DNA from: Candidatus Woesearchaeota archaeon
GTDB taxonomy: Archaea; Nanobdellota; Nanobdellia; Woesearchaeales; GW2011-AR4
Assembly (NCBI GenBank): GCA_016184145.1
Contig: JACPDF010000021.1
Location: 8,422 to 72,421 of the forward strand
DNA: 64,000 nt
Reading direction: 5' to 3'
Below the pieces are notes generated by a model. The model worked only from the letters and a program-made list of their open reading frames with translations. It was not told the DNA's origin and did not search any database. Below are positions 4,523 to 27,776 of this stretch, piece after piece. How positions within the stretch are numbered: position 1 is the stretch's first letter; each line of letters begins with the position of its first letter. The position numbers were made by a program, and so were the translations under genes.

Positions 4523-4555
4523 AATGATTTTCAATAAAAAAAACAATGAAAAATT

Positions 4556-4614
4556 CAATAATAAAAATCCATTAAAAAATAATCAACAATAAAATAAGAA
4601 ATAATAATTAAAAA
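4556..4614 (-). repeat. conserved AT-rich ~60-nt intergenic element (copy 1 of 3)
   Basis: The reverse complement reads cattttttaattattatttcttattttattgttgattattttttaatggattttt. This is about 85-90% identical to the segments at 23888..23965 and 58141..58200. Confidence 0.5.
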
Positions 4615-7600
4615 ATGAATAAAAAATACAGACAAAAAATTGCAGTAATGCTAAGCATATTAGTTGTAATGCTGCCGATATATTCTTCCATTGTATTTGC
4701 TAATTTATCCAAAATAGAGGCCCGCGGTAAGGACAATGTGAATAATTATATGAGAGAAGAGGATTTCATCACATTCAAGGCAACCGCTTCCATATCTGGA
4801 GACAGCGCAATAACTCCAAACCAGGTGCTTTTGGGCTCTGATCTGCAGTTTGACAGCTGCAAGGCAGGCATAGACGGCTTTGACTGCACCTTAAGGTTCC
4901 CTGGGAACGGGACAACAGTATTTGACGCAAGGGCCATTCCTTACACAGTAACATTAAAGAATGATGCAGGAAATGTCGTAGAGGCAAAAACCGACAGCAT
5001 TTTTGTTGACAATCTGCCTCCGGAAATTACTTCTTTTAGTGTTGACCAGGCTCTTGTAAGCTCTGGCGTTGTAAGATTTAGTTTTGATGTTGTAGATCAT
5101 GCCTGTGCAGCCTCTTCATGTTCTGGAAAGTGCTCAGGCATCAGCAGGGTTGAGCTTTCTGACAGTAACAGCAATTACAAGGATACCATCACTTTAAACA
5201 CTGACTCATGCACTATTACTAAGGTATTTGAAACATCCTCGTTGGAGTTCTCAGAAGGTGCTCATGTAATATTGGCAAAAGCATTTGATAGGTTTGATCA
5301 GTTATCAACAGCATCAGCAGCCTTTCAGCTTGACAAAAGCGCCCCTTTCATTGACTTAAACACCTTCAAGGTTGTTGATAGCCTGGATATAGACCTAAGC
5401 TCTTTTGGAATTAACCCTGTGCCTGTGACAGTAAAGATTGACATAAAAGACACTGATTTGAATAAGGACAATGTGTTTGCTAATTTAAGCGAGCTTAATA
5501 AAAACGCCGGTCTTGGAAATGCGCAGGCTGCTTGCGGTGCGACTGAAAATGATATAACAACATGCTCATGGCAGATAAGCCTTGCTCCTGACGGCTCTGG
5601 GCTAAAGAAAGTCACTATACTCGCTTCCGACAGCTCTGGAAATAATGCAAAGACAGAGATAACAAAGAGCTTTGGGCTGGACAACGAGGGCCCTGTTGTC
5701 CTTTCTTTGGCTACTTCCCAGGTTATAGACGGCCAGAGCTTTGCTAAATCAAATAATAATACTTTTATTGCCACTTTCAGGGATGAGGCAGGAGTAAAAC
5801 CAACAGACATTAAGCTGCATGCAGACGCTCTTGTTAAGGATGCAGACTCATGCGCTCAAGTAGTGGACATATGGCAGTGCACCTGGAGCAATATCAATCT
5901 CCTCAATCCGGGAAAAGTAAAGGTCTTCATCGATACTGATTCAAAGGACAGGGTAGGTAATGCTGTTTCGGAGAAATTTGAGAGAGAGGTCGTTGTTGAC
6001 TCTGCAAATCCAAAATTGATTCAGCTGGTTGTAAAAGGCATTGGCGGAAAGCAGGAAACAATTGAAGACTTTATTATCGCAGGGGACAAGCTGCAGGTCG
6101 AGGCAGTTATAGAAGATGATAGCCTGCAGAAAGCTGTTGCAGATTTTTCCAGATTTATATTTAATGCCCAAGAGGTTGATGCAGATGCGTGCACAAAGAC
6201 TGGAGAGAAAACAGTTGTATGCTCATGGACTACTTCCAGCATAGACATAGAAGGCTTTATTGATGATTTTATAAGGTTTGAATTTACTGATATTGCAGGC
6301 AATACCCTGGAAGCCAAGGAGCCTTTGAAGGTTTTTGGGGTGACAGGAGGCGAGACTCCTGATTTCTGGCAAAGCGCTGTCCAGTGCTCCCCATCTTTAT
6401 TGGATAGGGAAACAATGCCGCTGATAAACCAGAGGGCTTTTTGTTTGGTTTCTTTAAGGCCAAAATCATTGGTGGATGATCTAGGCACATTCGAGGATGT
6501 GGAGCCCGTAAGCGCAAGCTTAGGGGAATGCAATGGAGATTTAAGCTTTGTTGACGATATTAAATTGGAAAATAATGAATTCAGCAAAGAGCCTTTGATA
6601 AGGATCAACTTCAGGAAGCAGGATGCTAACATAGATAAGCTTGATTTTCTATGCCCTATTGACATAATATCGAGGAAAGGCAACAATATTTTCACAGTGC
6701 CAGAAAAAGAAAATGTAGATATAACTTTCCAGCTCTACAACCAGCCTCTCGGAGAAGTTAGCGAGAGCGTCCAGAAAAAGATTGATGATGCAGTTGAAGA
6801 TTCAAATAATATACTGAAAGTTGCGACTTTCTTCAAAAAGATTTTCTTTTATGGTCAGAGGACTTGCGAAATTGGGAATACAATTGTCAATGTTATAGTT
6901 TTATACAAAGTTGCTGGTAAAGTATGGGCTAATTGGGATGCTGCAACTACAGGAACACCAGCAAATCCACCAGCTAAAGCGCAAAGAATATCCTGGGATA
7001 TTATAACTGAAGAAGCAAGGCAGGAAACTTTAAAGGGATGGCCATTTTTCACAAAAGCATGCAACTTTGTCAATTGCAAGACCGTTATAGATACAGGTTC
7101 TGGTGCATTAAGGGTTGATGAAACGGCTATCACATTTAAGTTTGAAGACCCGGATTCCCTTTTGGGAAAATGGAGGCAGGCAGGAAACGGAATTATTAAA
7201 ACCTTGGATGTTGAGGGTGTTGTAAGCAAATATGTAGGGGGAGGAGGCAAAGAGAGCAACCCTGCTAGGTTCATGAACCCCAAAGACAGCATTGTAGTCG
7301 CATCTTTGACAGCGTGCATTCCTGGAATAATTTACGGCTTGGACAAGTACAGGCAGATACAATGCATGTATGCTGACTGCTTGCAGACGGGCGTTGGCGA
7401 GCAGGGCCTGCCTGTATTTGCATGTGAGGACCAAAAAGGCTATGCCACATGCAAGTATGTTGTAGGAGAGGCTTTCAAAGTCATACCCATAACAGCTGCA
7501 TTTGATTATTATGCAAATTTAATAAAATCCACTTTGGCAAACCCGTTCAAGATATTGGGAGCTGGAATGGCAGCTGCATGCAACCCGGCAATTGTGGCAG

Positions 7601-7776
7601 AGCCATTTAGCTATGAAATTTGCGCAGCGGTAAAAATAGCATCTCTCCTTGGAGTCACAATACAGGAAGTGACATCAATATTTGACTCAAATACATGGAA
7701 GGTGCAGGAAGACTTTTGCGGCAGGCTGGACAAAGGCAGCTCAGAGGAAAAAAGCGGAGGCCTATTTGGGATATAA
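4615..7776 (+). CDS. giant secreted surface protein (1053 aa) with Ig-like repeats and a C-terminal Cys-rich domain
   Basis: Signal peptide MNKKYRQKIAVMLSILVVMLPIYSSIVFA. Repeated beta-rich segments follow. The C-terminal Cys pattern (CxxxGI...CL...AC...YV) recurs in the 2227-aa protein. Confidence 0.7.
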   Translation: MNKKYRQKIAVMLSILVVMLPIYSSIVFANLSKIEARGKDNVNNYMREEDFITFKATASISGDSAITPNQVLLGSDLQFDSCKAGIDGFDCTLRFPGNGTTVFDARAIPYTVTLKNDAGNVVEAKTDSIFVDNLPPEITSFSVDQALVSSGVVRFSFDVVDHACAASSCSGKCSGISRVELSDSNSNYKDTITLNTDSCTITKVFETSSLEFSEGAHVILAKAFDRFDQLSTASAAFQLDKSAPFIDLNTFKVVDSLDIDLSSFGINPVPVTVKIDIKDTDLNKDNVFANLSELNKNAGLGNAQAACGATENDITTCSWQISLAPDGSGLKKVTILASDSSGNNAKTEITKSFGLDNEGPVVLSLATSQVIDGQSFAKSNNNTFIATFRDEAGVKPTDIKLHADALVKDADSCAQVVDIWQCTWSNINLLNPGKVKVFIDTDSKDRVGNAVSEKFEREVVVDSANPKLIQLVVKGIGGKQETIEDFIIAGDKLQVEAVIEDDSLQKAVADFSRFIFNAQEVDADACTKTGEKTVVCSWTTSSIDIEGFIDDFIRFEFTDIAGNTLEAKEPLKVFGVTGGETPDFWQSAVQCSPSLLDRETMPLINQRAFCLVSLRPKSLVDDLGTFEDVEPVSASLGECNGDLSFVDDIKLENNEFSKEPLIRINFRKQDANIDKLDFLCPIDIISRKGNNIFTVPEKENVDITFQLYNQPLGEVSESVQKKIDDAVEDSNNILKVATFFKKIFFYGQRTCEIGNTIVNVIVLYKVAGKVWANWDAATTGTPANPPAKAQRISWDIITEEARQETLKGWPFFTKACNFVNCKTVIDTGSGALRVDETAITFKFEDPDSLLGKWRQAGNGIIKTLDVEGVVSKYVGGGGKESNPARFMNPKDSIVVASLTACIPGIIYGLDKYRQIQCMYADCLQTGVGEQGLPVFACEDQKGYATCKYVVGEAFKVIPITAAFDYYANLIKSTLANPFKILGAGMAAACNPAIVAEPFSYEICAAVKIASLLGVTIQEVTSIFDSNTWKVQEDFCGRLDKGSSEEKSGGLFGI

Positions 7777-7783
7777 TTAAAGA

Positions 7784-10189
7784 ATGAAACATAAAAAACT
7801 GACAAAAAAAGCGCACCAACTAAGCACAATATTGATAGTTATAGTTTCTGTTATTTCCATAATTTCATTTGGGTTTTATACTGAAAATAATCCTGTTTCT
7901 GGTAATAATAAAAATATTGAACTGGAAATTACAGAGTCTGCTACAGGGATGGAAAGTGTTACTGGTATGGTGGTAAGTGGGAAAATTTCTGGACCTGCCA
8001 CACCGCCACCTCCGCCTGCACCCACAGCAACTGCGCCGCCTGCACCTGGAACAACTGCAACAGCTACCCCGCCCAAACCAACTGCGCCACCAGCACCGCT
8101 AGCAAGTCCCGAATCTATAAAAAAAGGCCCTCCAACAGCAAGACCAGTACCAGCAAATGATGGGTATTGGTACTTCAAAGAAAGTGATGGAACTCTTAAA
8201 TGGTATAATCCGAAAAAAGCTGGGACTGACAAGTGGGAAGAAATATTAAATACCTACACTATTACAGCAAGCAAGGGTGGGGAAACAAGAACCTTAAGCA
8301 TCGAAGCTGCAACGCTTAATAAGGCAACAGCCGAATTGACAAAAACCGGTTTTATAATATCGAATGTTGTATCTCCGCAAATAGCACAACAGCCAGCAGT
8401 AGCAGCGGATTTTAGACCTGACACTTTGGGAGGTGCAAATATTGTGAAAAACAGCAAAGGTGAAATGTATTTCGTGCCAACAGGGAAGACTCCTGAGCAA
8501 TATGCGCTTGAATTAAACCAAAAAATTGTAATCCAGAATGAATACAAAAAATTCCTTCAAGATAATAAGCTAAAAGATGATGACAAAAGCAAAAAGTGGT
8601 TTAAGGAGAATCTGCCTCCAGGCATTAATGCCGACCTGGTTAATGATGCCCTAGGAATAGGGGCTGCATCAGCATCTAAACAAGTAGCCATCTCAGTGCA
8701 AAAAATATCGCTTCCAAATGGGAAATTTAAGTTTATATTTGAAGGGAAAGAGTATGATAGTGACAGTGATAGCGAACCTCCTGAATTAACTGCTGCCAAA
8801 AATTTTAAAAAAGAGCATCCGACAGCAAAAAAAACCGATTTTACAGCTGATGGAAACACAGTCTATTCTGAAGGTAATAAATACATACTCCAAACCGGCG
8901 AGGAATATAAGGGCGAAGCCATAAAAAAAGAAAAAATTGGAGGAATTCCTTATGATGTTACTTACTCATTTGAAGGCAAAAAACCTGAACCCACCAAAAT
9001 TAAAATAGATGAAACAGATTTCAACTTAAATTCCAATGTTCTGAGCCAATTAAAGAGCAAAGTTGGCAAAGAAGACACGCTTAAGGTAAGCGAAGGGAAT
9101 TTAGTCCACACAAAAACAGCAAAAAAAACAGAAGGAAAGGAAGGGGAGGACAGCTATAGAGAAGCTACCACTACCACTATTTCAACTTATAATAAAGATG
9201 GATTAAATAGTTTAGTAGTAGATTATATCACAGTTAACAAAGATGGTAATGTCGTTGACAAAAAAAAGACAGTAACAACCTATGAATACGATAAAGGCAA
9301 TAATAAAGACAAACCTTTAAACATTATAGAAACAACTTATGAAAAAGATGAAAATGGAATTATAGATGAGTCAAAGAGTAGGACACTAATCACAGATGCA
9401 ATAACAGGAGAGCCAATAACAGTATTTTATTCAATCGGTCATCCAAGGAAGGGTAAAGAAAATGAGGACCTTGATCTCCTCAAAACCCAGTTTAAATCCA
9501 GGCAGTTCTTCGCCCAGCTTGAATCATCCCTTACAGACTTTAGCGGTTTAGGCTATTACGCAACATTATTCTTCAGCAGGGAAGACCTTGATATCTGGAG
9601 GGAGAATGTTGACAAGATATTCGCTACTTTATATTTAGGTACAGAGTATTGGACTTCTGGCATATGCGCCGCTGCCACAGACCTAGACAGGAGCAGCCAG
9701 GGAGTTGCTTATATTGACACCAAAACAGGCTTAGCGGCAGTAGCTGCGCATATAGAAGCTACACGAAGCGAGCAGATAATAGGGCCTGGAACAGAAGATA
9801 ACAGAACAGGTACAGTAAGGCCTACCAGGGAGTTTTTGTACAAGATAACATTCAACGTAAAGAATGGTGACTATGATACGGATCCAAAAGCCCTGGAAAA
9901 GATGAGGTTTAATATTGTATTAAGGGGGGAAAGGACGGCAAAGCTCTTCAGGAATAATATTGAGGTGAAAAAAGGAAATCAGTTTGGGCATCTTGGAAGA
10001 AATGCAATAGTGCAGTATAGCGACTTTTTCTATAGTACGGCATGCATAGAATTTGAAAATGCTCCGTCATCATGGACTTTAGACAATAATGAATTATGCA
10101 ACACAATTTTAGGACCTTCAGGGCCTACATCTATAGGCCAGCAGCAAACTGCCCAGGAAAGCGCAGGAGGAGATATTCTTGACATATAG
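7784..10189 (+). CDS. secreted protein (801 aa) with a Pro/Thr/Ala-rich linker
   Basis: N-terminal TM/signal region, then a PATPPPPPAPTATAPPAPG linker and a long K/E/T-rich domain. The gene is co-directional and contiguous with 4615..7776. Confidence 0.65.
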   Translation: MKHKKLTKKAHQLSTILIVIVSVISIISFGFYTENNPVSGNNKNIELEITESATGMESVTGMVVSGKISGPATPPPPPAPTATAPPAPGTTATATPPKPTAPPAPLASPESIKKGPPTARPVPANDGYWYFKESDGTLKWYNPKKAGTDKWEEILNTYTITASKGGETRTLSIEAATLNKATAELTKTGFIISNVVSPQIAQQPAVAADFRPDTLGGANIVKNSKGEMYFVPTGKTPEQYALELNQKIVIQNEYKKFLQDNKLKDDDKSKKWFKENLPPGINADLVNDALGIGAASASKQVAISVQKISLPNGKFKFIFEGKEYDSDSDSEPPELTAAKNFKKEHPTAKKTDFTADGNTVYSEGNKYILQTGEEYKGEAIKKEKIGGIPYDVTYSFEGKKPEPTKIKIDETDFNLNSNVLSQLKSKVGKEDTLKVSEGNLVHTKTAKKTEGKEGEDSYREATTTTISTYNKDGLNSLVVDYITVNKDGNVVDKKKTVTTYEYDKGNNKDKPLNIIETTYEKDENGIIDESKSRTLITDAITGEPITVFYSIGHPRKGKENEDLDLLKTQFKSRQFFAQLESSLTDFSGLGYYATLFFSREDLDIWRENVDKIFATLYLGTEYWTSGICAAATDLDRSSQGVAYIDTKTGLAAVAAHIEATRSEQIIGPGTEDNRTGTVRPTREFLYKITFNVKNGDYDTDPKALEKMRFNIVLRGERTAKLFRNNIEVKKGNQFGHLGRNAIVQYSDFFYSTACIEFENAPSSWTLDNNELCNTILGPSGPTSIGQQQTAQESAGGDILDI

Positions 10190-10213
10190 GGCATAAATTA
10201 AAAATATCTTAAC

Positions 10214-10969
10214 ATGAAAAACAACATTATAGCACAAAATTATCTGTTATTGATAAATTCCTTTAAAAGAATAAGTTTAAAGTTCTTTTTAATATTGGCT
10301 TTTGACATTCTTTTTTACTTTATTTTTATGCAGATAGGGAATTTTTTCTTGAAAATAATAGAAAAAAAGGCAGCAAATGTCGACCTTGCGCAAAACCTTC
10401 TTGGATTGAACCAGCAGGCTGCCAGTTCCTTATTGACCTCTGTAAGGGGATTTTTCTTTTTCCTTATCTTTTCCGCAATTTTATTTTTATTATTGATGGT
10501 GATTAACTGGAGCGTCTTCAAGGGCCTTATCTGGACAACAACCGCAGATAAAAAATTTAATTTCGGATTTTTTAAGAAATTTTTATTGCTGAACTTGATT
10601 TGGCTGCCATCCTGGTTTTTGCTCATATTCCTGTTTGCGGTTATAATAAACCCGGAAACATCTCCAATATTCATGATAGTCACTTTAGCTGTAGCATTCT
10701 ACTTCACCAATATACTTTACCCATTATTTCTAAAGGAGAATAAATTAAGAATAATAAAAGAAGCCTTTAAGCTTGGAATTAAAAAAATCCACCAGTTTAT
10801 TGTTCCTTACGCAATAATTATTATTCTGTTTTTTATGATATTAAATGCCTATAATCTTATTGCTATAAGGGTTAATTTGAATCCAAATGTTTTCTTTGGC
10901 ATTCTTCTGGTTTTTATCGCGTGGCTGAGGTATTATTTTGTTGAGATTGTTTACAGCCTGCACAAATGA
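10214..10969 (+). CDS. polytopic membrane protein (module-associated, paralog of 20277..21146)
   Basis: 251 aa with at least 5 predicted TM helices. It shares the segment VINxxVFKGLIW / VVINGLIWYF with 20277..21146. No GxGD prepilin-peptidase motif is present. Confidence 0.55.
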   Translation: MKNNIIAQNYLLLINSFKRISLKFFLILAFDILFYFIFMQIGNFFLKIIEKKAANVDLAQNLLGLNQQAASSLLTSVRGFFFFLIFSAILFLLLMVINWSVFKGLIWTTTADKKFNFGFFKKFLLLNLIWLPSWFLLIFLFAVIINPETSPIFMIVTLAVAFYFTNILYPLFLKENKLRIIKEAFKLGIKKIHQFIVPYAIIIILFFMILNAYNLIAIRVNLNPNVFFGILLVFIAWLRYYFVEIVYSLHK

Positions 10970-11194
10970 TTGTTTTCTACAGAAAACTATTTATATTATA
11001 ATGCAAGAGGGTTATGCAAAAAGGGGTGAGCATGATAAATTTCTATAAATTCCGCTATAAATTGCTCTGTAAAGTAATTTTCTTCACAATTTCACCAAAA
11101 GCCTTAAATATTCATATATAAATTATATATTAAATACTATTGTTAAATATATAAAACATCTATTAAATAGATATAAAACATATATAAAATAATA

Positions 11195-11353
11195 ATGAAA
11201 TTCACAAAAAAAGTCATAAAAACATCCGGAGGCCTAGTTGTAAGGGTTCCTGCAGATATTGTCAGGCTTCTTAGTCTGACAGATAAGGATTATGTTGAGA
11301 TTGATTTGACAAAAATAGACCTTAAAGAATTAAACAAGAAATCAAAATCATGA
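11195..11353 (+). CDS. AbrB/SpoVT/MazE-like swapped-hairpin DNA-binding protein
   Basis: Unlisted 52-aa ORF MKFTKKVIKTSGGLVVRVPADIVRLLSLTDKDYVEIDL..., a typical AbrB-fold signature. Its stop overlaps the next ORF's start (ATGA). Confidence 0.5.
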   Translation: MKFTKKVIKTSGGLVVRVPADIVRLLSLTDKDYVEIDLTKIDLKELNKKSKS

Positions 11354-11574
11354 AAATCAGAGATTTTCAGGACACAAGGAAAACAAAGTTTTCCGGTGTA
11401 CAGGAAATTCAAAGAATTTCCAAGTATGCCAAAAAGGCTTTAGCCTTTTTGTGCATAATGTTTAGAAATACAAAAACAAATGCCAATGAAAAAAACAATA
11501 GGAACATAAAAAATTTGCTCGAACAAAGTTCGGCACCAACTTCATTGGATTCGGCATTTTTGCATGCACAATGA
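11350..11574 (+). CDS. small basic ORF (74 aa) translationally coupled to the AbrB-like gene; possible toxin-like partner
   Basis: A 4-nt ATGA overlap with 11195..11353. No motif is recognised, so whether it codes is uncertain. Confidence 0.25.
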   Translation: MKIRDFQDTRKTKFSGVQEIQRISKYAKKALAFLCIMFRNTKTNANEKNNRNIKNLLEQSSAPTSLDSAFLHAQ

Positions 11575-11740
11575 CAATAAAGCAAAAATGCAGGCAATTA
11601 TTAATTATTTTTCCATGGTTTATGGAGTAAACCCAGAAAAAATTGAAAATTTTTTCGTTGCCGAATAATATTAAAAGTGAAATTAAACAATGACTGAACA
11701 AATGATTGTGAACATTGGATAAAAGATAGTTATTAAAAAA

Positions 11741-13621
11741 ATGTCAAAAAAAAGAGGTCAGGCATCTATATTCATGGTAATGGCAGTAATCATATTGCTC
11801 CTAGGGGCTCTTTTCTTCTATACCCAAAGGGCTTCTCTGGAAAAAGCAGAGCTGATAAGCCCAGAAATAGCGCCTGTGAAAAATTTCATAGACGCGTGCA
11901 TAAGCGATGTCGCAAGGCAGGGCATAACAATACTTGGGTTTAATGGGGGCTATATAAGCTTCCCGGATGAGATAAAAAACAATCCCAGGAGTTATCTGCA
12001 GCTTGGGCCTATAAGCAGCATAAAAAACCCTTACTGGTGGTATGACGGCATTGAAAGCGTTCCGTCAGAAAGCTTCATTGCAAGGCAGATAGAAGATTAC
12101 ATTACCTCAAATCTCGACACATGCATAAGCGACTTTAGCGCCTTTAGCCAGTTTGATGTAAGGCAAAGAGGATCTCTTGGCGTAAAAGTAACCCTTAATG
12201 AAAATGATGTTGCTGTAGATGTGAATTATCCTTTGGAGCTTACAAATAAGCTGAATAGAACCACAATAATGCTTGAAAAGTTCAAGGAAACGCTGCCCAT
12301 CAGGCTTAAGAAAGCCTATGAGATGGCAAAGGACATCTACGAGTCTGAAAAAAAGAATTTTTTCCTTGAATTTAAGACAATGGACCTTATAGCAATGGAC
12401 AAAAATATACCGACAACAGGGATAGAGACAACCTGCGGGGAAAAAGTATGGCGCGTTGACCAGGTGCAGCAAAAGCTGAAGAGGCTTCTCAATGTAAACT
12501 TGCCCTATATCAGCATAGTCAGCTCCGAATTTGATGAGAAGGTCTATGTGCCCAATCCATTCGGAGAAAATACCTATAAGGACTCCTACTATGGCAAGCA
12601 TTACAGCTGGCAAATAACAGACAAAAATTATGCTAATTTAAAAGTTTCATTTGCCTATGAGGAAAACTGGCCAATGCAGTTTTACGCAAGGCCAAGCAAC
12701 AATGGCATAATGAAGTCAAACGCCAAGAAAAGCCAGAGTTTTTTGGATTTTTTCTGCCTGCACATATGGCATTTTACATATGATGTTGTGTACCCTGTAA
12801 GGATCACCATAACTGACAATGCCCCCAAATCCGAGCCGTACCAGTTTAACTTTGCATTTGAGGTAAGCGTGGACCACAACCAGCCGAGAAGGGAAAACTT
12901 CGCATCAACATTATTCGAGCAGGCCGTTCTTGGTAATCAGGAAGAGTATTGCAATGATGTTGTGAATGATATTACCATTTATACAATGGAAAACACGACA
13001 GACCAGAAAGACATAGCCCATGTCAACCTCACATTCACATGCGGGATGTTTACATGCAACATGGGAGAGACAGACTGGCTTAGCTATGGTGCTGCTGCCG
13101 GCCTGACAAAGGCCTTCCCCTACTGCGTAAACGGCATCTTGAGGGGAAGCAAGGAAGGGTTTGAAGATAGCCAAAGATTCATGCGGACAGAGGCCCCAGG
13201 CACATATACGCTTTACCTTAAGCCAGTAAAACAATTTCAGGATTATGAGATTGTGAAACATGACTTTGACAATCCTTCTATTGAAAGCAAATTGAAGGAA
13301 AATGAGAAAGCGTCTATAACAATAAAATCCACGCAAAGTGATTTTGAAACTTTTGGAGTCTATCCTGTTGAAAAGGATTTCCAGATAAAGCTGCTCAATG
13401 ACGACCAGGAATATGAAGTCGCAATTTACCTTTCAGACGAAGACAGCATCATTGGCGGCTACAAGGGGACATGGAAAATTGCCGCATCAACAGTGTCAAA
13501 TTCAAAAAAAATAATATTTCATGTCCTGGAAAAGCAGGGGAATGATGACGAGACAGCTCTCTTTGTTTCAGGGCTTGATTCATACTCGCAAAAAGTTCCG
13601 CAGCCAGAGTTGATAGGATGA
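11741..13621 (+). CDS. large protein with class-III (prepilin-like) signal motif, family member 2
   Basis: MSKKRGQ|ASIFMVMAVIILLLGALFFY, with NPYWWY and NLDTCISDFSAF motifs. It is a paralog of 2402..4522. Its stop overlaps the downstream start (ATGA at 13618). Confidence 0.65.
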   Translation: MSKKRGQASIFMVMAVIILLLGALFFYTQRASLEKAELISPEIAPVKNFIDACISDVARQGITILGFNGGYISFPDEIKNNPRSYLQLGPISSIKNPYWWYDGIESVPSESFIARQIEDYITSNLDTCISDFSAFSQFDVRQRGSLGVKVTLNENDVAVDVNYPLELTNKLNRTTIMLEKFKETLPIRLKKAYEMAKDIYESEKKNFFLEFKTMDLIAMDKNIPTTGIETTCGEKVWRVDQVQQKLKRLLNVNLPYISIVSSEFDEKVYVPNPFGENTYKDSYYGKHYSWQITDKNYANLKVSFAYEENWPMQFYARPSNNGIMKSNAKKSQSFLDFFCLHIWHFTYDVVYPVRITITDNAPKSEPYQFNFAFEVSVDHNQPRRENFASTLFEQAVLGNQEEYCNDVVNDITIYTMENTTDQKDIAHVNLTFTCGMFTCNMGETDWLSYGAAAGLTKAFPYCVNGILRGSKEGFEDSQRFMRTEAPGTYTLYLKPVKQFQDYEIVKHDFDNPSIESKLKENEKASITIKSTQSDFETFGVYPVEKDFQIKLLNDDQEYEVAIYLSDEDSIIGGYKGTWKIAASTVSNSKKIIFHVLEKQGNDDETALFVSGLDSYSQKVPQPELIG

Positions 13622-16600
13622 AAGCAAAAAGAACATTAATCCGGTTTATTGCATTGCTCTTGCTAGAGCTGATAATACTGTATCCAGTGGAGTTTGTATA
13701 CGCCCTGAGCATTTCAAATGTGCAAATAACGGATGTAAGCTCAAACTCGGCAAGGGTGAAATGGTTTACAGATGAGGTTGCAGACGGCAAGGTAAAATAC
13801 GGGCCTACAAAAGACTTAGGATTTACCTCTAGGCATACCACTTTTATTTTTGAGCACAACCAGCTGCTGCAGGGCCTTGACTCGGAAAAAACTTATTTCC
13901 TCGATATAGAGTCATCAAACATCAACGGAGACATTGCAGTAGACAACAACAGCGGTCAGTTCTATTCTTTTACCACAAAAGACATCACGCCTCCCGCAAA
14001 AGTAGAAGGGCTTACTGTAACAGGCAGGACTAAAAATTCCATAGCGATAGCATGGCAGGCATCAAATGCCCAGGATTTAAGCCATTACAACATATTCAGG
14101 AACAATGTAAGGGTTGCAAATGCGACAGACACAATTTTTACAGACACAAACCTCAGCCCGGGATCAGCCTTTTCCTATAAAGTGTCTGCAATAGACTTAT
14201 CTGGAAATGAGGGTGCCCAGTCAGACACTGTAATTGGATCCACTGAAGCATTGGACCTCTCCAGCCCGGTAATAAGCGAAGTGGATATAGCGGAAATCAG
14301 GGACACAACGGCAATAATCATATGGCTGACAAACAAAAACAGCACCTCGATTGTTTTCTTCGGAACCGGCCAAAATCTGGATAGAAAAGAGGAAATTAAA
14401 GAACAAGTAAAAAACCACTCGGTAACCATAGGCAGCCTGGAAAAAGGTATTTCTTACAGCTTTGTTGTAAGTTCCTGCGACGAGGACAATAACTGCGCAA
14501 ACTCTTCAATATCGAGATTTGAAGCTGGACTAGGTGCAAAAGCCCCAAGTCTCAATGCAACAATACCGATGTTTGTGAATAAAAAAGAGATTGACATAAT
14601 AGGATCAACAGAGCCTTTTTCCTCGGTAAAGCTGTTTGTGAATGACTTAAACTTCCCAGTGAGAGCATTAGACAGCAAGGAAACACCAACAGGAGCATTT
14701 GAATTCCAGAATGTGCAGCTGCAGAAAGAGAATGTCATAAAGATTCTTGTTGCGGACAAAGCAGGCAACAAGAATGAAAGCACTTTTAGGGTAAGCGTTG
14801 ACACAGAAAGCCCTGTGGTGATTATCGATCAAGTTCCGGGAATAACATCAAAAAAGAATTTGACAATTGTAGGAACAGTAGATGAGCCTGTCTCCATGAA
14901 TTTCTATCTAAGGTTCGGCTCAAAAGAAAAGCCGGAAAAGATAACGGGGCTTAGTGGAGCTGCAAAAAACAACTCGATAAAGCTTGAATGGGATGAGACA
15001 AAAAATGAAGAATTTAGTCATTACATAATTTATAGGAAAGACATAGGACCTATTGCAATCACAGACTCTAAATCCTACAATTCCTACACTGACTTATTGG
15101 TCAACAAAGGCCAGGAATACACTTATTGGGTCACTGCAGTAGACAAATTCGGCAAGGAAAGCGACAAGTCAGATGTCGTCATGGTAAAAGTAATTGATGG
15201 AAGAAATGATATACCGAAGCCAAAACCTATTGAAATCCTGATAATAGAAAAGCCTGAATTAAGCATAAGCGTGAATAATACATTCTCCGAGTCATTAAAG
15301 ATTGAAAAAGACGGTGAATACACTTTAACAATAGAGGTGCTTGACAGGGCCAACAATAGGGTTGTTATTGAGCGCACAATAACTTTGGACACAAAAAAGC
15401 CTGACATAAAGATCACAAACCCACCATCCGGCACAATGATCTTTGAGAACTATGCGGGTGAGGTTGATGTCAAGGGCACCACAGAGCCGAATGCCAATAT
15501 TCATTTATACATAGAAAGGACTCCATTTGGGGGCTTAAACAAGTCTTTTGATGTAACTGCAATATTAGGGGGCATAGAAAGCATACCCGAGGCAAAATTA
15601 GACGCAAAATGCAGCGCCGGCATTGGGAGCAAAAATTTCTGCCCTGAATCAGCCGATTTCTCAGCTACAGCCGACAGCAGCGGGAATTTTGAATTTGACA
15701 ATGTTGATTTGACAAGCAGGAGCGGAGGGTTCTTAAGCATAGGGGGAGGCGCAAACATAGAGCAGGTCCCAGGAGCTCAGCTCGTACAAGAACTCAGACC
15801 GGAAACAACGAAAACCTCAAGGCTTGTTTTCATAGCAACCGACCTCGCTGGCTTAAGAAATGCAAAAGAGCATACTATAAGGATAGGCACATGCTGGTCG
15901 GGAAACCAAAGCTGGGATTTAATTCCTCTGACAGAGTTCCAGAGCCCGACATTCCTTAGCCCGCAAAGGCTTGCCGAGAACAAGGAAAGCATTTATTTCT
16001 TCTTTAATTACTCCTATATTGGCAGGGGAAAAGACGCAAAGATAGACAGTGTTTCCCTGCAAAAAGCCTGCTCAGGCACAGAAGTTTTAGGCGATAAGAG
16101 GTTTAACACAAGCTGTAAAATATTGCCTTCCGGAGGCTTCTCAACTGCAGTAAATCCGGAAGGGACTGCAACATACACGCAGATTAATCTAAACAGAGTA
16201 GAAAGAATGGACAGGTTTTTGCAGAATGACTGGAAAGATTTCTTCAATTCTGTAAGCAATGAATTGACATTTCCACTGAAGTTCACAATAAGATACAAGC
16301 ATAATGTAGAAGGCAAAGAAGTCATAGAAACGCAAACAACATGCCAGGAGATTACCTATGTATTGGATAACAGCATAATAGATCCGAGGGATATATTGCC
16401 TGACTGGCTTTTGTATGATTTCGTTGATTTCCTGCAAAATTCAATTGAAACAATAAATGATGTCAACCAGCAGCTCACCAAAGTTGTAGAGTTTGTGACT
16501 ATTGGCTGCGTTTCAACCTTCTTTTTAAGGATACCGGTGCAATTCTACAGGCGCCTTATTACTTTCAGCGAGGAAAAAATATTCCTGCTTAAGGACATAA

Positions 16601-19600
16601 CCAGCAAATTTTCTGATGGGCAAATTAAGTTTAATGTCAAAAACGATGAGGATCAGGTATATTGCAATGCTGTTGCGAACAACATCAAAAAAGACTATAA
16701 GCTTGGCACGGATAAAAACTCCTTATTCGGATTAAAGTTAAAGTATTTTAGCGATAAGGATCTAAAAAGATGCTTCCCTGAGGTTGCGGATATATGGGAC
16801 ACAGAAGCATCATTGTACAAAGCCTATAGGTACACTTGCGACAGGATTTTCGGCCATCAGACACCATCAGCATGGACGGAAAACCTTGATGATGAGAAGA
16901 TATACCAGAGAGTCCTGGAAGGCAACCAATGCCCCAATGACCAAAGCGTGTTTGGCAGGCCTATACAGGCAGTTAACTGCAGGGAAGTCTCAAGGCAATT
17001 TTTAATAGAGGAAAATTTCTTTGATGTTGGTAGTGTTTGTTTTGTTCTTCCTATTAGCACATCAGGCAGCAGAGAGAGAGGCAATCAACTTTTCCAGCTG
17101 GGCAAGCCTGTTGAAGGAGGAACAAATGTTTATGAGATAACAAGGGTAAGGGAAAGGGGCTCTTACGCGGAGACAAAGTATGTAATAAAACAATCAGAAA
17201 GGCAGTATCTTACAAATAGGCCTGAGAGATGCGAGCAATTATGCGCTGGTGGTGTTATTCAAGGTTTGCAGAAGGACACAGTGGTAATTGGCGGCATATC
17301 TTATCCTGCTTATCAAACTCCAAAAAAGAATCTGAAGGAGCCTACGGATCCACTTAAAAAAGCAATTCCTGCCTGCGTAAGTGCTGCGCAATGCAACCAG
17401 TGGGCTGAGCAAAAGCCAGAGGCTACATTTGGGGATAATGTGATAAAAATAGATTCTGCAAAAAGGCAGGGCTATACAAGCGACTGCTTCCCGCCAGCAA
17501 CAGACCTTTCCTCAATAAGCGACAATCCCCAGCAAAGGTATGAATGCTGCTGCTTAAACAGCAAAAAGGCTGAAGCACCGACACTATATTATCTTTATGA
17601 TGATCTGAACAGGTATGAGGATGATAAAAACACAAAGCAAAGCGCGTTTCAGTCAAAGAAAAATTTGGATACTCCGGAAAATCTTGCAGATGTAGAATGG
17701 AGCTACAGGTACTGGAAAGAAGGGTATATTGCCTTGTCCAAGGAAACCACGCAATCAGGCAGGAATATCCAGCATAACCAGTATAATCCAAACAGGTACA
17801 TTGAAGGTCGTGATTACCCAGCGTGCTTTGGGCAGAATAATTACCTCTACGAGGGATTTATCAGTCCGGGCGAAGGCGAAGTTGGAAAATTGGTTACAAT
17901 AGATTCCAGGCAACAGTTTGAAAGCGCGTTTTTCTGCGCGAACATAGCAGGCATACAGAACAGGCTTGTCATGCTGAACAACATGCAAAGTGCTTTAGCC
18001 AGCTGCTTAATAGATGTAAGAGAAACCGGAACTTCGGATGCTGCAGCGTGCAAGGAATTCTTTACAAGATATGTCTGCTCTAGTATATGGCAGACAATAA
18101 ATTTTGCCCAAAATTTGTTTTCAGATTCGTGCACATCATCACCCTTAGGAGTCTCGATACAGGATGAGGATGATTATGCTGCGGCTGTAAGCGCGGGCTT
18201 TAGGAGCGCAACCCAGAGCATCACTGATGCCCAATCAGAGCTTGCAGGCGAATATGGAAATGTGCAGCTTAATAATTTGCTAGGTACTGGGGCAGGAGAG
18301 GTTGCAAGGAAAGTCTGCTTGGCAGCATTCGGCTATGACTGGGACCTGAGCCTGCAGAATATTATTAATGCCGCTTACTCCCAATCATTTGAAACTCTTG
18401 TGCAAAAAACAACAGGCACCAGGGAATATTTGACAATAGATCCTACCAACGGCCAGGCAAGATATGACTACAGGGCCTCATGGATAATAAATCCCGGGTG
18501 CGATATCGATAGCTATAAAGTCGAGCTTGCTTGTGTAAGCAGATACGAGCTGAGCAAGGAAGGAGAGTTTATCGACCCGTTATCATCCATTGGAGTGCCT
18601 TCCAGAGGCATAAGATGCGATGCAGTGGGAAGCCCGGACGGAAATAACTGCGATTGCCTAAACCTTGACAAGGAGCAAACAAAGAGCTTCTTTACATCGA
18701 AAGGCAAATTGCTGCAGAACAAGCTTGTGCAGCAGGCCCAGGATGAGGTTGTCTCCTCCCTGTACAGGTACGATCACCTCAAATTCACTTTACGGCCTGA
18801 CAGGAAGCTAAAAGGAGATTTGGCAAAAACTTGCTTCCCGCCGGGGCATGAAGACGGGGTATTTTATTTCCCATTAACAGACAAAACCGCAAGGGACATA
18901 GCAGCATGCAAGCTAGAGCCCATATCAGGGGTTTTCCAGTGCACTGGCGCTTTGGACTTCTGGAGCAAGAAAGGACTGGCTAATATAGTAGATGTAACAA
19001 TAAACGGGGAAAAGGCAAAAGACAATTCATTCACAGTCTTTAAAGGGGAATCATTAATATTGACTCCGACTATATTCAAGACGCCTGGAGCCCCAAATAA
19101 ATGCCTTGTCATGCAGCTTGAGAAGCAGGGAATTGGATTAACTTCACAAGTAGAAACCATAAACGTTGATGGCACATACCAGTATTCTCCGATAACGCTT
19201 GATCAGAATGTCCAGCCTGTTCAGAATCTGGGAATTTTGCCGTCAGCTCAATTTAACGGCTGTACCACAGTAATCAACACAGGAACTCAATGCCAAGAGA
19301 TTATATCAAGGCAAAAGCCTACTATTGGAGTTTTGCAGAGAGGAAATACTCAGGATGTTGATTTGTCTATCACATTCATTGATGAAAAACCGGAAGATGG
19401 AAGGATTGACATAAGTGAAAACAGCCAAGATAAGATGGAAGTAAGTGTATTAGGAAGTGCTGTTGATTCAAGAATATTGGGAAAAGGTGGCTGGTATGAT
19501 GAAAGCAGGAAAAAGCCTGTTATTGACCTGCCACAATACGACATAAAATTGCAGGTAAATACTGTGCCTTTCGCATCAGGAGTAAAATCAGCGATCTACA

Positions 19601-20301
19601 CACAAATAATCCCATCAATCTTCGGTGGTGCAAGCACAACAACCCTTGGCAGTCAAAATATAGCCTCAGATAACATCTGGAAATTAAAGCTAAGCTTATT
19701 CGAGGCTGATGACAATACTTTCCTTTGCAGCAGGTATAATGCAGGAGAAACTGTGCAGTACCAGGGGACAAAGCAGGAAAAAACATACACAATAAGGGTT
19801 GCAGCCCAAAGACAGGATGCAGACGCTCCAAGAGTAACACTAAATATTCAACCTTCTGAAATTAAGCTTGTAGGGGAAACAGCAAAATTGACTGTTGATG
19901 TAACTGACGAGACAAAAGTAGGAAATATTGTTTTTGAATTGGCAAAGCCCGGAGGGCCAAAATTCAATTGGGATGCAGTTAATAATGAAGCCAAAAATTC
20001 GTGCATTCCAAGCGCTTTGCAGGGAAGCGGTGACAGGAAAGTCTGCTCAATAGATATTGACGGCAGCAAGCTGAATGTGGATAAAGCAGGAACATACAGG
20101 GTAACTGTAACAGCATATGATGAGGATAGAATATCACACAAGGATGTAAAGGAAGCCGCAATTGAGGTTTTGTGCGGCCCGTCATCAGATAATTCTTACG
20201 GGATATGTATGAAAGGCGGAAGCTGTGGAAGAGAAAATGTGATAGAAGGGACAACAACGTGCCAGCAGGGATTTGAATGCTGCAGAAAATTCCAGGGTTA
20301 A
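13618..20301 (+). CDS. giant secreted protein (2227 aa) with multiple fibronectin-III-like repeats and Cys-rich domains
   Basis: Signal peptide present. There are at least three FN3-like segments (ISNVQITDVSSNSARVKWFTDE...; PPAKVEGLTVTGRTKNSIAIAW...; SPVISEVDIAEIRDTTAIIIW...). The central and C-terminal Cys-rich regions share a pattern with the 1053-aa protein. Confidence 0.8.
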   Translation: MKAKRTLIRFIALLLLELIILYPVEFVYALSISNVQITDVSSNSARVKWFTDEVADGKVKYGPTKDLGFTSRHTTFIFEHNQLLQGLDSEKTYFLDIESSNINGDIAVDNNSGQFYSFTTKDITPPAKVEGLTVTGRTKNSIAIAWQASNAQDLSHYNIFRNNVRVANATDTIFTDTNLSPGSAFSYKVSAIDLSGNEGAQSDTVIGSTEALDLSSPVISEVDIAEIRDTTAIIIWLTNKNSTSIVFFGTGQNLDRKEEIKEQVKNHSVTIGSLEKGISYSFVVSSCDEDNNCANSSISRFEAGLGAKAPSLNATIPMFVNKKEIDIIGSTEPFSSVKLFVNDLNFPVRALDSKETPTGAFEFQNVQLQKENVIKILVADKAGNKNESTFRVSVDTESPVVIIDQVPGITSKKNLTIVGTVDEPVSMNFYLRFGSKEKPEKITGLSGAAKNNSIKLEWDETKNEEFSHYIIYRKDIGPIAITDSKSYNSYTDLLVNKGQEYTYWVTAVDKFGKESDKSDVVMVKVIDGRNDIPKPKPIEILIIEKPELSISVNNTFSESLKIEKDGEYTLTIEVLDRANNRVVIERTITLDTKKPDIKITNPPSGTMIFENYAGEVDVKGTTEPNANIHLYIERTPFGGLNKSFDVTAILGGIESIPEAKLDAKCSAGIGSKNFCPESADFSATADSSGNFEFDNVDLTSRSGGFLSIGGGANIEQVPGAQLVQELRPETTKTSRLVFIATDLAGLRNAKEHTIRIGTCWSGNQSWDLIPLTEFQSPTFLSPQRLAENKESIYFFFNYSYIGRGKDAKIDSVSLQKACSGTEVLGDKRFNTSCKILPSGGFSTAVNPEGTATYTQINLNRVERMDRFLQNDWKDFFNSVSNELTFPLKFTIRYKHNVEGKEVIETQTTCQEITYVLDNSIIDPRDILPDWLLYDFVDFLQNSIETINDVNQQLTKVVEFVTIGCVSTFFLRIPVQFYRRLITFSEEKIFLLKDITSKFSDGQIKFNVKNDEDQVYCNAVANNIKKDYKLGTDKNSLFGLKLKYFSDKDLKRCFPEVADIWDTEASLYKAYRYTCDRIFGHQTPSAWTENLDDEKIYQRVLEGNQCPNDQSVFGRPIQAVNCREVSRQFLIEENFFDVGSVCFVLPISTSGSRERGNQLFQLGKPVEGGTNVYEITRVRERGSYAETKYVIKQSERQYLTNRPERCEQLCAGGVIQGLQKDTVVIGGISYPAYQTPKKNLKEPTDPLKKAIPACVSAAQCNQWAEQKPEATFGDNVIKIDSAKRQGYTSDCFPPATDLSSISDNPQQRYECCCLNSKKAEAPTLYYLYDDLNRYEDDKNTKQSAFQSKKNLDTPENLADVEWSYRYWKEGYIALSKETTQSGRNIQHNQYNPNRYIEGRDYPACFGQNNYLYEGFISPGEGEVGKLVTIDSRQQFESAFFCANIAGIQNRLVMLNNMQSALASCLIDVRETGTSDAAACKEFFTRYVCSSIWQTINFAQNLFSDSCTSSPLGVSIQDEDDYAAAVSAGFRSATQSITDAQSELAGEYGNVQLNNLLGTGAGEVARKVCLAAFGYDWDLSLQNIINAAYSQSFETLVQKTTGTREYLTIDPTNGQARYDYRASWIINPGCDIDSYKVELACVSRYELSKEGEFIDPLSSIGVPSRGIRCDAVGSPDGNNCDCLNLDKEQTKSFFTSKGKLLQNKLVQQAQDEVVSSLYRYDHLKFTLRPDRKLKGDLAKTCFPPGHEDGVFYFPLTDKTARDIAACKLEPISGVFQCTGALDFWSKKGLANIVDVTINGEKAKDNSFTVFKGESLILTPTIFKTPGAPNKCLVMQLEKQGIGLTSQVETINVDGTYQYSPITLDQNVQPVQNLGILPSAQFNGCTTVINTGTQCQEIISRQKPTIGVLQRGNTQDVDLSITFIDEKPEDGRIDISENSQDKMEVSVLGSAVDSRILGKGGWYDESRKKPVIDLPQYDIKLQVNTVPFASGVKSAIYTQIIPSIFGGASTTTLGSQNIASDNIWKLKLSLFEADDNTFLCSRYNAGETVQYQGTKQEKTYTIRVAAQRQDADAPRVTLNIQPSEIKLVGETAKLTVDVTDETKVGNIVFELAKPGGPKFNWDAVNNEAKNSCIPSALQGSGDRKVCSIDIDGSKLNVDKAGTYRVTVTAYDEDRISHKDVKEAAIEVLCGPSSDNSYGICMKGGSCGRENVIEGTTTCQQGFECCRKFQG

Positions 20302-21146
20302 AAATGGGCTCTAAACATATAGTTATCAGCTCATTGAAAGAATCTTTTTTGCTCATTAAAAAAAACAAAAAGGTATTTTTGCTGGTTTTTATTCTGCAGG
20401 TCTTATTTTTTTTATTGATTGTTATGGTTAATGTTTACCACATGCCGCAGATATTGCAAAGCGCGAAAGATGCCATAGACTATGCTGAGGCATTAAACAT
20501 AAATCCCCAGACTGCCAATATCGACATGCTGCAGAAGAAAAACCCGCTTGGAGAAGACCCATTATTAATAAGCAGAAATTATGATTTAATTATAAAAAAT
20601 TCATTTTATTTGCTGTTTTCTATTTTTTTAATATTTGTTGTTATTAACGGCTTAATATGGTACTTTTCCTCAAATATAAATGAAAAAGGCAAAAATTTGT
20701 TTTCATTGAAGAACATCTTGCGCTATCTCTCAAGATTTTTTATAATAGCCATCATATTATCTGTGCCATTGTATTTTTTTGCTTATGCGCTTGTAAAAAC
20801 ATCTTTCAGCAGCTTTCTCTCCGCAAAGCCAGCGGATTTTGTTCCGTTATTGCTAATCGCAGCCATAGCCATTTATTTCATTTATATATCAATTCCAATA
20901 CTGGATAAAATCAAGTTTAAAAGCCTGGCAAAAAAATTATTTTCAATAGGAACAAAGAACTTCATTCCTGTAATAATTTCCTATTTGATTATTTTAATTT
21001 TGATAATGGCCTCTTTATTTTTGATTTTTTATTTGATAGAGCTGAATCTGTTTTTATTGCTGATTGCTGTTTTATTGTCTATTTTTGTTTTTGCCTGGGC
21101 TAAAATTTATTTTTCAGTTGTTGTTAAGAAGTTAAGCGGCTTGTGA
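20277..21146 (+). CDS. polytopic membrane protein (paralog of 10214..10969)
   Basis: 289 aa with multiple TM helices. It overlaps the 3' end of the giant gene by 25 nt and has the same architecture as 10214..10969. Confidence 0.55.
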   Translation: MLQKIPGLKMGSKHIVISSLKESFLLIKKNKKVFLLVFILQVLFFLLIVMVNVYHMPQILQSAKDAIDYAEALNINPQTANIDMLQKKNPLGEDPLLISRNYDLIIKNSFYLLFSIFLIFVVINGLIWYFSSNINEKGKNLFSLKNILRYLSRFFIIAIILSVPLYFFAYALVKTSFSSFLSAKPADFVPLLLIAAIAIYFIYISIPILDKIKFKSLAKKLFSIGTKNFIPVIISYLIILILIMASLFLIFYLIELNLFLLLIAVLLSIFVFAWAKIYFSVVVKKLSGL

Positions 21147-26915: not shown

Positions 26916-27776
26916 CTAAGAATATAAGGTGGTCTTTATGTAACTCAAAGGCAAATCATTAAAATTAGGGTAGAAAGTAAGAGGATTTAAACGACCATTC
27001 AAAACCTTAAGCCTTTCATTCAAAGTGGTATAAGGAGGGCAAAATCCAGATTTCTCCCAAATGTTTACTTTAGTAACATGTTTAAGATTCTTAAAACCAA
27101 TGTCTTTTATCCATTTTAAGACATCACTTTTGGAGTCTACTATCACTGAGTGCATAGTATATTCATTTTTTCTTTGTTTTATAGGCTTTTGAATTCTTGG
27201 ATGAAAACCCAAACCTATTAATAAACTATAAACTTCTTCAATTAGAGTATAAGATATTGTAGCTAGTTTTATTTTTGGCCTATAATGAAAAGCATTATAA
27301 ATTGATTTTTTCTTTCTCTTGTTGTAACTTTTGCAAAAATAGATACTTCCATCTGTATCAAACAAACCTCTAATAAAACATATTTTCTCTCTTAGAGTTT
27401 TTATTTTAAAGGGTACAGATATTGCATATTTTTTACCGTTTTTCAAATTAAAATTGCTTTGCAGAAATTGAATAAAATCTCTTTGAAAAACATAAATTCC
27501 ACAAACTCCTACAGATTTATAAATCCTCAACTTTGCCGGATTATTTAATTGACTCGTAAATAAACGATTAAAAGTTGGGACGACAACTTTTTTGTAGAAT
27601 GGGTATTCCTCAACAATATCTCCTGTTAAAGTGTATTGGTAGTGCCGTTTATTAATACTTATACAGCCATCGCCAACATGCCAACCCAGAAATTCTGCTA
27701 ATTCTTCTGAATAATCTTTATTCTCTCCATTATTTGAATTATTTTCAAAATCCAAAATTATATTTTGATTTTTCAT
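26916..27776 (-). CDS. free-standing LAGLIDADG homing endonuclease (two-motif type)
   Basis: Two LAGLIDADG motifs, LAEFLGWHVGDGCIS and IRGLFDTDGSIYF, in a basic 286-aa protein. Confidence 0.8.
   Translation of the reverse strand: MKNQNIILDFENNSNNGENKDYSEELAEFLGWHVGDGCISINKRHYQYTLTGDIVEEYPFYKKVVVPTFNRLFTSQLNNPAKLRIYKSVGVCGIYVFQRDFIQFLQSNFNLKNGKKYAISVPFKIKTLREKICFIRGLFDTDGSIYFCKSYNKRKKKSIYNAFHYRPKIKLATISYTLIEEVYSLLIGLGFHPRIQKPIKQRKNEYTMHSVIVDSKSDVLKWIKDIGFKNLKHVTKVNIWEKSGFCPPYTTLNERLKVLNGRLNPLTFYPNFNDLPLSYIKTTLYS

Follow-up and report, generated by a model that had tools for sequence, protein, structure and literature searches.

A conserved Woesearchaeal gene block and three large paralogous proteins with a putative prepilin-type N-terminal signal

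Three motif proteins and a conserved seven-gene block

We analyzed a 64-kb stretch of DNA (64,000 nucleotides, here called the window; contig JACPDF010000021.1, positions 8,422 to 72,421 of the forward strand) from an uncultured Candidatus Woesearchaeota archaeon (DPANN). Three open reading frames (ORFs) in the window, A626, A706, and A264, encode proteins whose N terminus combines a brief basic leader with a small residue and a glutamine placed directly before a hydrophobic stretch. A626 (positions 11741 to 13621, plus strand, 626 aa) has the translation start MSKKRGQASIFMVMAVIILLLGALFFY, which reads MSKKRG/QASIFMVMAVIILLLGALFFY when the putative cleavage site is marked with a slash. A706 (2402 to 4522, plus strand, 706 aa) starts with MIKKAQVSIFIILGIVILAAAAVVFY (MIKKA/QVSIFIILGIVILAAAAVVFY), and A264 (42317 to 43111, minus strand, 264 aa) starts with MDKRRGQVSIFILFSFVILIIAGFLFY (MDKRRG/QVSIFILFSFVILIIAGFLFY). 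A626 is identical to a protein of an NCBI metagenome-assembled genome (MAG), and in all three ORFs the start codon is the first possible one after a stop. Translation confirmed that ORFs with the N termini and sizes named in the original prediction exist. That prediction paired A264 correctly with its coordinates, although it swapped the N termini of the ORFs at 2402 and 11741, a minor slip.

The leader of A626 (MSKKRG, 11741 to 11758, plus strand) is a short basic n-region with G at position -1, and it is followed by a putative class III cleavage site. Residues Q7 to Q29 (11759 to 11827, plus strand) comprise the invariant Q at +1, S or T at +3, the invariant F at +5, and a hydrophobic run that is free of charge until R30 and has its hydropathy maximum at residues 8 to 26. 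Hydropathy analysis revealed a single hydrophobic segment in each of the three proteins (residues ~7 to 26), with 22 to 25 charge-free residues after Q (~23 hydrophobic). The proposal that A626, A706, and A264 are related proved correct. They are true paralogs, with BLASTP E values that ranged from 1e-22 to 7e-48 (A706 versus A626, 7e-48 with 26% identity across ~610 aa; A264 versus A626, 6e-26; A264 versus A706, 1e-22), and the similarity among them extends well past the N terminus. A264 represents the minimal core, namely, the N-terminal helix and an alpha/beta domain with two invariant cysteines. Its relatives are 240 to 440 aa long.

A706 opens a seven-gene block of ~19 kb (2402 to 21146), in which all genes lie on the plus strand in the order A706-B1053-C801-D251-A626-E2227-D289. 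B1053 (4615 to 7776, 1,053 aa), downstream of A706, has a Sec-type signal peptide and 27 cysteines but no membrane anchor, and it gave merely weak immunoglobulin (Ig)-like Pfam matches. C801 (7784 to 10189, 801 aa) carries a different N-terminal transmembrane (TM) anchor, a Pro/Thr-rich linker, and a conserved C-terminal domain. The first sub-block is closed by D251 (10214 to 10969), a polytopic protein with ~6 TM segments, no cysteine, and no Pfam or NCBIfam match. In the second sub-block, the A626 stop and the start of E2227 (13618 to 20301, 2,227 aa) overlap by 4 nt. E2227 has a Sec-type signal, 50 cysteines, and fibronectin type III (FN3)/Ig-like domains, and it is followed by D289 (20277 to 21146), a second polytopic membrane protein, which closes this sub-block. 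The block is split by a 771-bp AT-rich non-coding gap (10970 to 11740; GC content, ~0.32), whereas the equivalent junction in a related locus, L001, is 1 bp long. Rfam, tRNA, and terminator scans of the gap and of the window found nothing.

Outside the block, F516 (40764 to 42314, minus strand, 516 aa) lies immediately downstream of A264 and carries a Sec-type signal (MEKIKKTTNIAIVILAVLLLNFMSAMA/QD). Each of the three motif proteins is therefore encoded directly upstream of a Sec-secreted partner (A706 before B1053, A626 before E2227, and A264 before F516), and in each case the large partner is Cys-rich, of the Ig/FN3 type, and without an anchor of its own. One Pfam and NCBIfam scan of all nine locus proteins returned no match above the cutoff; in another scan, E2227 matched the Pfam families fn3 (5.7e-16) and Pur_ac_phosph_N.

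For comparison, 85 related loci were gathered, which together with the window make up 86 neighborhoods (1.35 Mb; 725,889 aa of ORF translations). Synteny is extensive. The block is collinear, gene for gene, with a 446-kb JGI contig at 29 to 44% identity, and it recurs across 80 fetched Woesearchaeal species genomes wherever the flanks are long enough. The order A706-B-C-D-A626-E-D was found in loci L001, L007, L034, L047, L049, L072, and many others. The A626 ortholog adjoins the E2227 ortholog in 78 of 82 loci. Orthologs of D251, C801, B1053, D289, and A706 were present in 56, 55, 44, 40, and 32 loci, respectively, with the smaller counts limited by contig ends. The position of the B1053 ortholog is conserved, C801 orthologs occupy the same position wherever the flank is present, and D289 is always the final gene of the block. 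All three paralog types occur in a single cluster in L002. The pairing of A264 with F516 is repeated in L003, L004, and L005, where a motif protein of 259 to 271 aa is followed by a protein of 487 to 498 aa; the partners of A264-type proteins are Sec-secreted and ~490 to 516 aa long. This conserved seven-gene locus without linked filament machinery, together with the pairing of motif proteins and giant partners, is new.

Many MAG contigs with this locus (L006, L011, L013, L058, and others) bear the title "uncultured Methanosarcinales archaeon" or "Candidatus Aenigmatarchaeota" in public records. These titles look like taxonomic mislabels; the protein in L006 is 83% identical to A626.

Family size, motif constraint, and predicted structure

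A word-indexed search with A626 recovered 146 clusters of proteins with lengths of 611 to 688 aa, and all of the named ones were from Woesearchaeota or Nanoarchaeota. Using a profile of the core domain, an exhaustive hidden Markov model search recovered 9,847 clusters (50%-identity representatives) at an E value of <=1e-3, with 3,788 at <=1e-30. Among genomes scanned at one per GTDB species, 122 had an A626 ortholog. No Pfam or NCBIfam model reached its cutoff for A626, A706, or A264. It is new that this family is very large yet has no Pfam or NCBIfam model, and that its motif variant (Q at +1 and F at +5) is missed by current models.

The family consensus is K-[KR]-[GAS]/Q-[VI]-[TS]-[IVL]-F, followed by ~20 hydrophobic residues. 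An alignment of 113 A626 orthologs (41 to 83% identity to the window protein) contained only 28 invariant columns, with Q7 and F11 among them. Both residues were still invariant in 130 sequences that included the 706-aa type, and Q at +1 was also invariant in 87 aligned family N termini. Position statistics were calculated for 137 motif matches among 146 diverse representatives. Q was found at +1 in 137 of the 137, as the match pattern itself required. K occupied position -3 in 108 representatives, and K or R occupied position -2 in 127. At position -1, G, A, S, and T were found in 77, 36, 23, and 1 representatives, respectively, so that 136 of the 137 had G, A, or S. Position +3 was T or S in 129, and position +5 was F in 129 and otherwise I, Y, or L. 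The leader varied from 4 to 33 residues across the representatives, with the site itself unmoved. Elsewhere, the hydrophobic segment was much less conserved than the motif pattern among thousands of relatives.

The motif is also highly specific to the family. The strict pattern [KR][GAS]Q.[STA][ILV]F occurred 94 times in the 725,889 aa, and 92 of these occurrences were family N termini. It was carried by 92 of the 107 family ORFs with an intact N terminus; of the 15 that lacked it, 14 were one or two positions off and kept the small residue before Q, and the last was a mis-called start. The constraint on the motif is far above the need of a generic membrane anchor. Because B1053, E2227, and F516 carry ordinary Sec-type signals, in which the cleavage region lies downstream of the hydrophobic core, the motif is not a compositional habit of exported proteins in this organism.

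An AlphaFold2 (AF2) model of A626, based on the 113-sequence alignment, had a pLDDT of 90.4, and a rerun with residues 1 to 385 had a pLDDT of 91.6 and a pTM of 0.84. The model consists of a helix (residues 5 to 33), a low-confidence linker (34 to 43) that contains a conserved P-E-x-x-P-V motif, an alpha/beta ectodomain (44 to ~385), and beta-sandwich domains (~400 to 626). The N-terminal helix is not continued into the globular domain, and the flexible linker lies between the two. A Foldseek search of the PDB with the A626 model gave nothing significant, and the family profiles matched no PDB sequence. Because both searches were empty, the conserved ectodomain, as modeled, appears to have no solved relative and to be effectively a new fold family. 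Seven cysteines (C53, C232, C339, C404, C434, C439, and C462) are invariant in the 113 orthologs, a pattern that would fit an extracellular, disulfide-bonded domain. The C-terminal domains are similar to CnaB/transthyretin-like stalk domains and to SlaB.

Evidence for and against a prepilin-type signal

The leaders, the hydrophobic domain (H-domain), and the conserved motif of the family agree with the class III (prepilin) pattern, as originally proposed. A626, A706, and A264 each have a charged leader with [KR(DE)][GA] just before the hydrophobic domain, which is the leader pattern of FlaFind, and in each the ~20 uninterrupted residues directly after the site form the sole TM segment. Their cleavage-site tetrads are RGQA (A626), KAQV (A706), and RGQV (A264), with the consensus [KR][GAS]Q[VI]. 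As judged from the residues, these tetrads resemble in type those of EpdA to EpdE, the EppA substrates of Methanococcus maripaludis (RAQI, KGQV, KGQV, KGQL, and KGQI; PMC4371748). EppA requires Q at +1, and the mature Q N terminus has been seen by mass spectrometry (PMC4371748; PMC3875500). The shortest leaders known to be cleaved are 3 aa for PibD and 5 aa for FlaK (PMC10117864), and the leader lengths of the family are compatible with cleavage. Archaellins have a near-invariant G at +3 (PMC10117864). Because position +3 is T or S here, and not G, a PibD-like or EppA-like specificity is likelier than that of the archaellin-specific FlaK. The statement in the original prediction that large class III substrates are known is also well founded: FlaFind-positive proteins range from <150 to well over 1,000 aa, and bindosome subunits exceed pilins in size by a factor of four or more (PMC4371748). 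Large archaeal proteins with prepilin-type signals are an already known kind and are not surprising at that level.

The reading that we favor, with a confidence that is no better than even, is that the N terminus is cleaved and represents a variant, specific to the lineage, of the class III (prepilin-type) signal peptide of archaea. We propose that A626, A706, and A264 are N-in/C-out cell-surface proteins of a large unannotated Woesearchaeal family. An A24 peptidase whose gene lies elsewhere would act on the cytoplasmic side and cut off the basic leader behind G, A, or S, and the predicted cleavage would expose an N-terminal Gln able to cyclize. By its retained helix, the A protein would stay in the membrane or become part of a short membrane-proximal bundle that includes its paralogs and the D proteins. 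The disulfide-stabilized ectodomain and the beta-sandwich stalk may then hold the giant secreted partner at the cell surface. As a whole, this would serve a DPANN cell, itself probably host dependent, as a surface or adhesion module in the style of a minor pilin with PilY1 or of SlaB with SlaA, and not as a long fiber. The A proteins look more like membrane-proximal anchors for secreted partners than like fiber subunits.

Several observations weigh against this reading. S is found at position -1 in 17% of the representatives, outside the usual G/A set of known archaeal substrates. EppA substrates have a conserved Glu at +5 (PMC3875500), and this hallmark of EppA-type/DUF361 pilins is replaced by F. 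The PF04021 model (Class_IIIsignal) matched 0 of the 87 family N termini (E <=0.01), and its best scores were 8.0 and 7.2 bits (E values of 3.9 and 7) against a gathering score of 23.7. The designation of the signal as EppA-type in the original prediction is thus borne out by Q at +1 and by the type of tetrad, but not by position +5 or by PF04021. The Tad model PF13400 was reproduced by only 3 of the 87 N termini (E <=0.01). It scored 15.8 bits with full-length A626 and 22.5 bits with the isolated N-terminal 40-mer (cutoff, 22.3), scored 14.6 bits with A264, and did not match A706. No A24 peptidase, type IV filament (TFF) ATPase, or platform gene was found in the 86 neighborhoods, of which the related loci were searched with regular expressions only. 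A groundwater preprint described type IV pilus components as missing in DPANN genomes (10.1101/2020.05.14.094862). The density of N-glycosylation sequons is not enriched and is uninformative on surface location. The proposed role as an anchor for the partner is based on two facts only, gene adjacency and the absence of an anchor in the partners.

Two other assignments were rejected. The NCBI product name of A626, "Tad domain-containing protein," is misleading; it reflects a borderline PF13400 match that is not a family property. A Tat signal was excluded, with most members having KKRGQ, KKAQ, or KKSQ and not RR-x-F-L-K.

The search for filament machinery in the surrounding DNA was negative throughout. 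Pfam matches to T2SSE, T2SSF, and Peptidase_A24 were absent from the 64-kb window and from five annotated neighborhoods. A crude regular-expression search of the 1.35 Mb revealed no T2SSE-type Walker A motif, A24 motif, archaellin N terminus, or small class III ORF. Pilin-sized motif ORFs were not found in the 1.35 Mb either, since the 95 motif ORFs were 200 to 800 aa long except for two frameshift fragments. None of the ATPase, TadC/FlaJ platform, and major pilin that are co-located in a TFF locus was found in these searches. The original prediction had suggested that the motif proteins are displayed on, or anchored to, a pilus-like fiber. The window and the 85 related loci yielded neither a TFF ATPase, platform gene, or A24 peptidase nor a motif ORF of pilin size, and nothing was found in support of such a display or of a pilus location of A626, A706, and A264.

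D251 and D289 were considered as the missing peptidase and excluded, as neither has a conserved GxGD motif or Asp pair. The conserved residues are D31, N127, K191, P198, R239, and Y241 in D251 and Q41, W128, Y200, G225, and K228 in D289. Few of them are polar (D31, N127, K191, and R239 in D251; Q41 and K228 in D289).

Machinery genes have been reported elsewhere in these lineages. Most Woesearchaeota MAGs of one study contained flaB, flaH, flaI, flaJ, and the peptidase gene flaK, and archaellin ranked among the most expressed genes (PMC11606122). A recent census placed Epd-like "system 1" filaments in some DPANN and found that several archaeal TFF systems are accompanied by large adhesin-like proteins (10.64898/2026.04.22.720090). 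In archaea, pilin genes frequently lie apart from those of their machinery (PMC3875500).

The family shares some features with each of several known systems. The Epd pilins of M. maripaludis (DUF361/PF04021, including the larger MMP0600, MMP0601, and MMP0709) likewise have a short, basic leader whose last residue is G or A, with Q at +1 directly before the hydrophobic helix (tetrads KGQV and RAQI versus RGQV, KAQV, and RGQA here). Like the Woesearchaeal family, they comprise several paralogs, some of them large, whose genes are scattered away from the machinery. Unlike in the Epd group, position +5 is F and not E here and the ectodomain is of an unrelated kind; neither an EppA gene nor an Epd-type locus turned up in the vicinity. 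The PibD-processed sugar-binding subunits of the Sulfolobus bindosome (GlcS, AraS, and others) also combine a large non-pilin ectodomain with a prepilin-type signal and stay at the envelope without forming a long fiber. However, they are recognizable solute-binding proteins that need the linked bas ATPase and platform genes, whereas the Woesearchaeal proteins have a novel ectodomain, a giant secreted Cys-rich partner, and no adjacent transporter genes.

Other resemblances are more limited. Unlike the minor-pilin/PilY1 complexes, GspI-J-K of the type II secretion system (T2SS), and Streptococcus sanguinis PilB, the Woesearchaeal locus has no major pilin and no machinery genes. In contrast to modular and minor pilins, the A626 model has no continuous alpha-1 helix packed on a beta-sheet, and its similarity to their folds is within the range of unrelated alpha+beta folds. 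The bacterial pseudopilins TadE, TadF, and TadG (PF13400) likewise carry R/K-G at the N terminus ahead of a hydrophobic helix, and they can be large (TadG), but no Tad genes are present here and the organism is archaeal. SlaB of the Sulfolobus S-layer pair SlaB/SlaA (anchor and lattice protein) has a C-terminal helix anchor and no class III motif, and the likeness to it is that of a ubiquitous beta-sandwich fold only.

Four other explanations were weighed. In the first, which we regard as possible though doubtful, the N terminus is an uncleaved type II signal-anchor, whose Q, F, and small residue would cap the helix or make a specific contact within the membrane, such as with D251 or D289. This explanation fits the lack of a peptidase or TFF gene in any neighborhood and the preprint's claim that DPANN have no type IV pilus components (10.1101/2020.05.14.094862), but a flaK gene occurs in the majority of Woesearchaeota MAGs (PMC11606122). 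In dozens of genomes, the last gene of each sub-block is that of a D-type polytopic protein, which would offer such an anchor a contact; yet the D proteins have few conserved polar residues. The flexible linker of the AF2 model, placed between helix and ectodomain, resembles that of bitopic membrane proteins, and the Pfam class III models find no match. Nevertheless, the combination of G, A, or S at -1 with basic residues in positions -3 and -2 and with Q at +1 directly before a hydrophobic stretch is the signature of A24 substrates. In addition, the tetrads agree with those known from proven EppA substrates, and the site keeps its place while leader length ranges from 4 to 33 aa.

In the second explanation, the proteins are true fiber components that are cleaved, extracted by type IV filament machinery encoded elsewhere, and incorporated as tip or minor pilins of a pilus- or archaellum-like fiber, so that the ectodomains and partners are presented away from the cell. 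We consider this unlikely. The class III-like N terminus is as expected for such a component, and the three paralogs with their large adhesin-like partners recall minor-pilin/PilY1 priming complexes, but the model helix is not continuous with the globular domain. The 1.35 Mb of loci contain no pilin-sized motif ORF, and no machinery is linked to the locus. Machinery at a distance would nonetheless agree with the frequent separation of archaeal pilin genes from it (PMC3875500) and with the presence of flaI and flaJ in most Woesearchaeota MAGs (PMC11606122), and large adhesin-like proteins do stand beside several archaeal TFF systems (10.64898/2026.04.22.720090).

A third explanation, which strikes us as improbable, is that [GAS]-Q-x-[ST]-x-F is not a general prepilin peptidase site but the sorting or assembly signal of a dedicated TFF-independent machine. 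The machine would consist of the D proteins and the three paralogs and would assemble the giant Cys-rich partners into a host-attachment organelle specific to Woesearchaeota. Finally, a chance resemblance or start-codon artifact, for which the shortness of the motif and nothing else speaks, has a negligible probability and was excluded by the invariant Q7 and F11, the position statistics, conservation in thousands of clusters, near exclusiveness to the family (92 of 94 occurrences), and start codons that are, in each ORF, the earliest available after a stop.

The Woesearchaeota, an abundant and uncultured group of DPANN, are thought to spend their lives attached to other cells, and we know of no identified cell-surface molecules in this lineage. 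If the favored class III signal is correct, prepilin-peptidase processing in DPANN would serve large envelope proteins besides archaellins, and current models (PF04021) would miss a major variant. If the N terminus is uncleaved, the motif would mark a new membrane-assembly signal. Under either reading, the locus makes a concrete candidate for the surface or attachment apparatus of this major uncultured lineage.

Other genes in the window

The other genes of the window are archaeal housekeeping genes, including those for aRF1, aIF5A, a topoisomerase, and an intein-containing phosphoenolpyruvate (PEP) synthase. No tRNA gene, and no Rfam family at the gathering threshold, was detected in the 64-kb window. 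Divergent from the A264 operon lies a gene pair (43568 to 45492, plus strand) for a DUF2157 membrane protein and a GDYXXLXY protein. Because the listed ORFs overlap by ~200 nt, the second start is probably further downstream. The N terminus of the DUF2157 protein, MLNKKG/ASFGTIIAV, fits a loose class III pattern too.

The PEP synthase/PPDK-like protein (46141 to 49797, minus strand) owes its length of 1,218 aa to an intein that bears a LAGLIDADG homing endonuclease (Pfam Intein_splicing, residues 436 to 825; LAGLIDADG_3, residues 651 to 704), whereas its relatives in L003 and L004 are 800 aa long and have no intein. A free-standing LAGLIDADG-type endonuclease of 286 aa (26916 to 27776, minus strand) adjoins an ATP-cone protein and may be the remnant of a mobile intron or intein. 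A secreted protein of 360 aa (35124 to 36206, plus strand) has 46 cysteines and a match to the Dumpy DPY module. Its N-terminal part is similar to the C terminus of a 681-aa RDD-domain membrane protein (53590 to 55635, minus strand; BLASTP E value, 6e-7).

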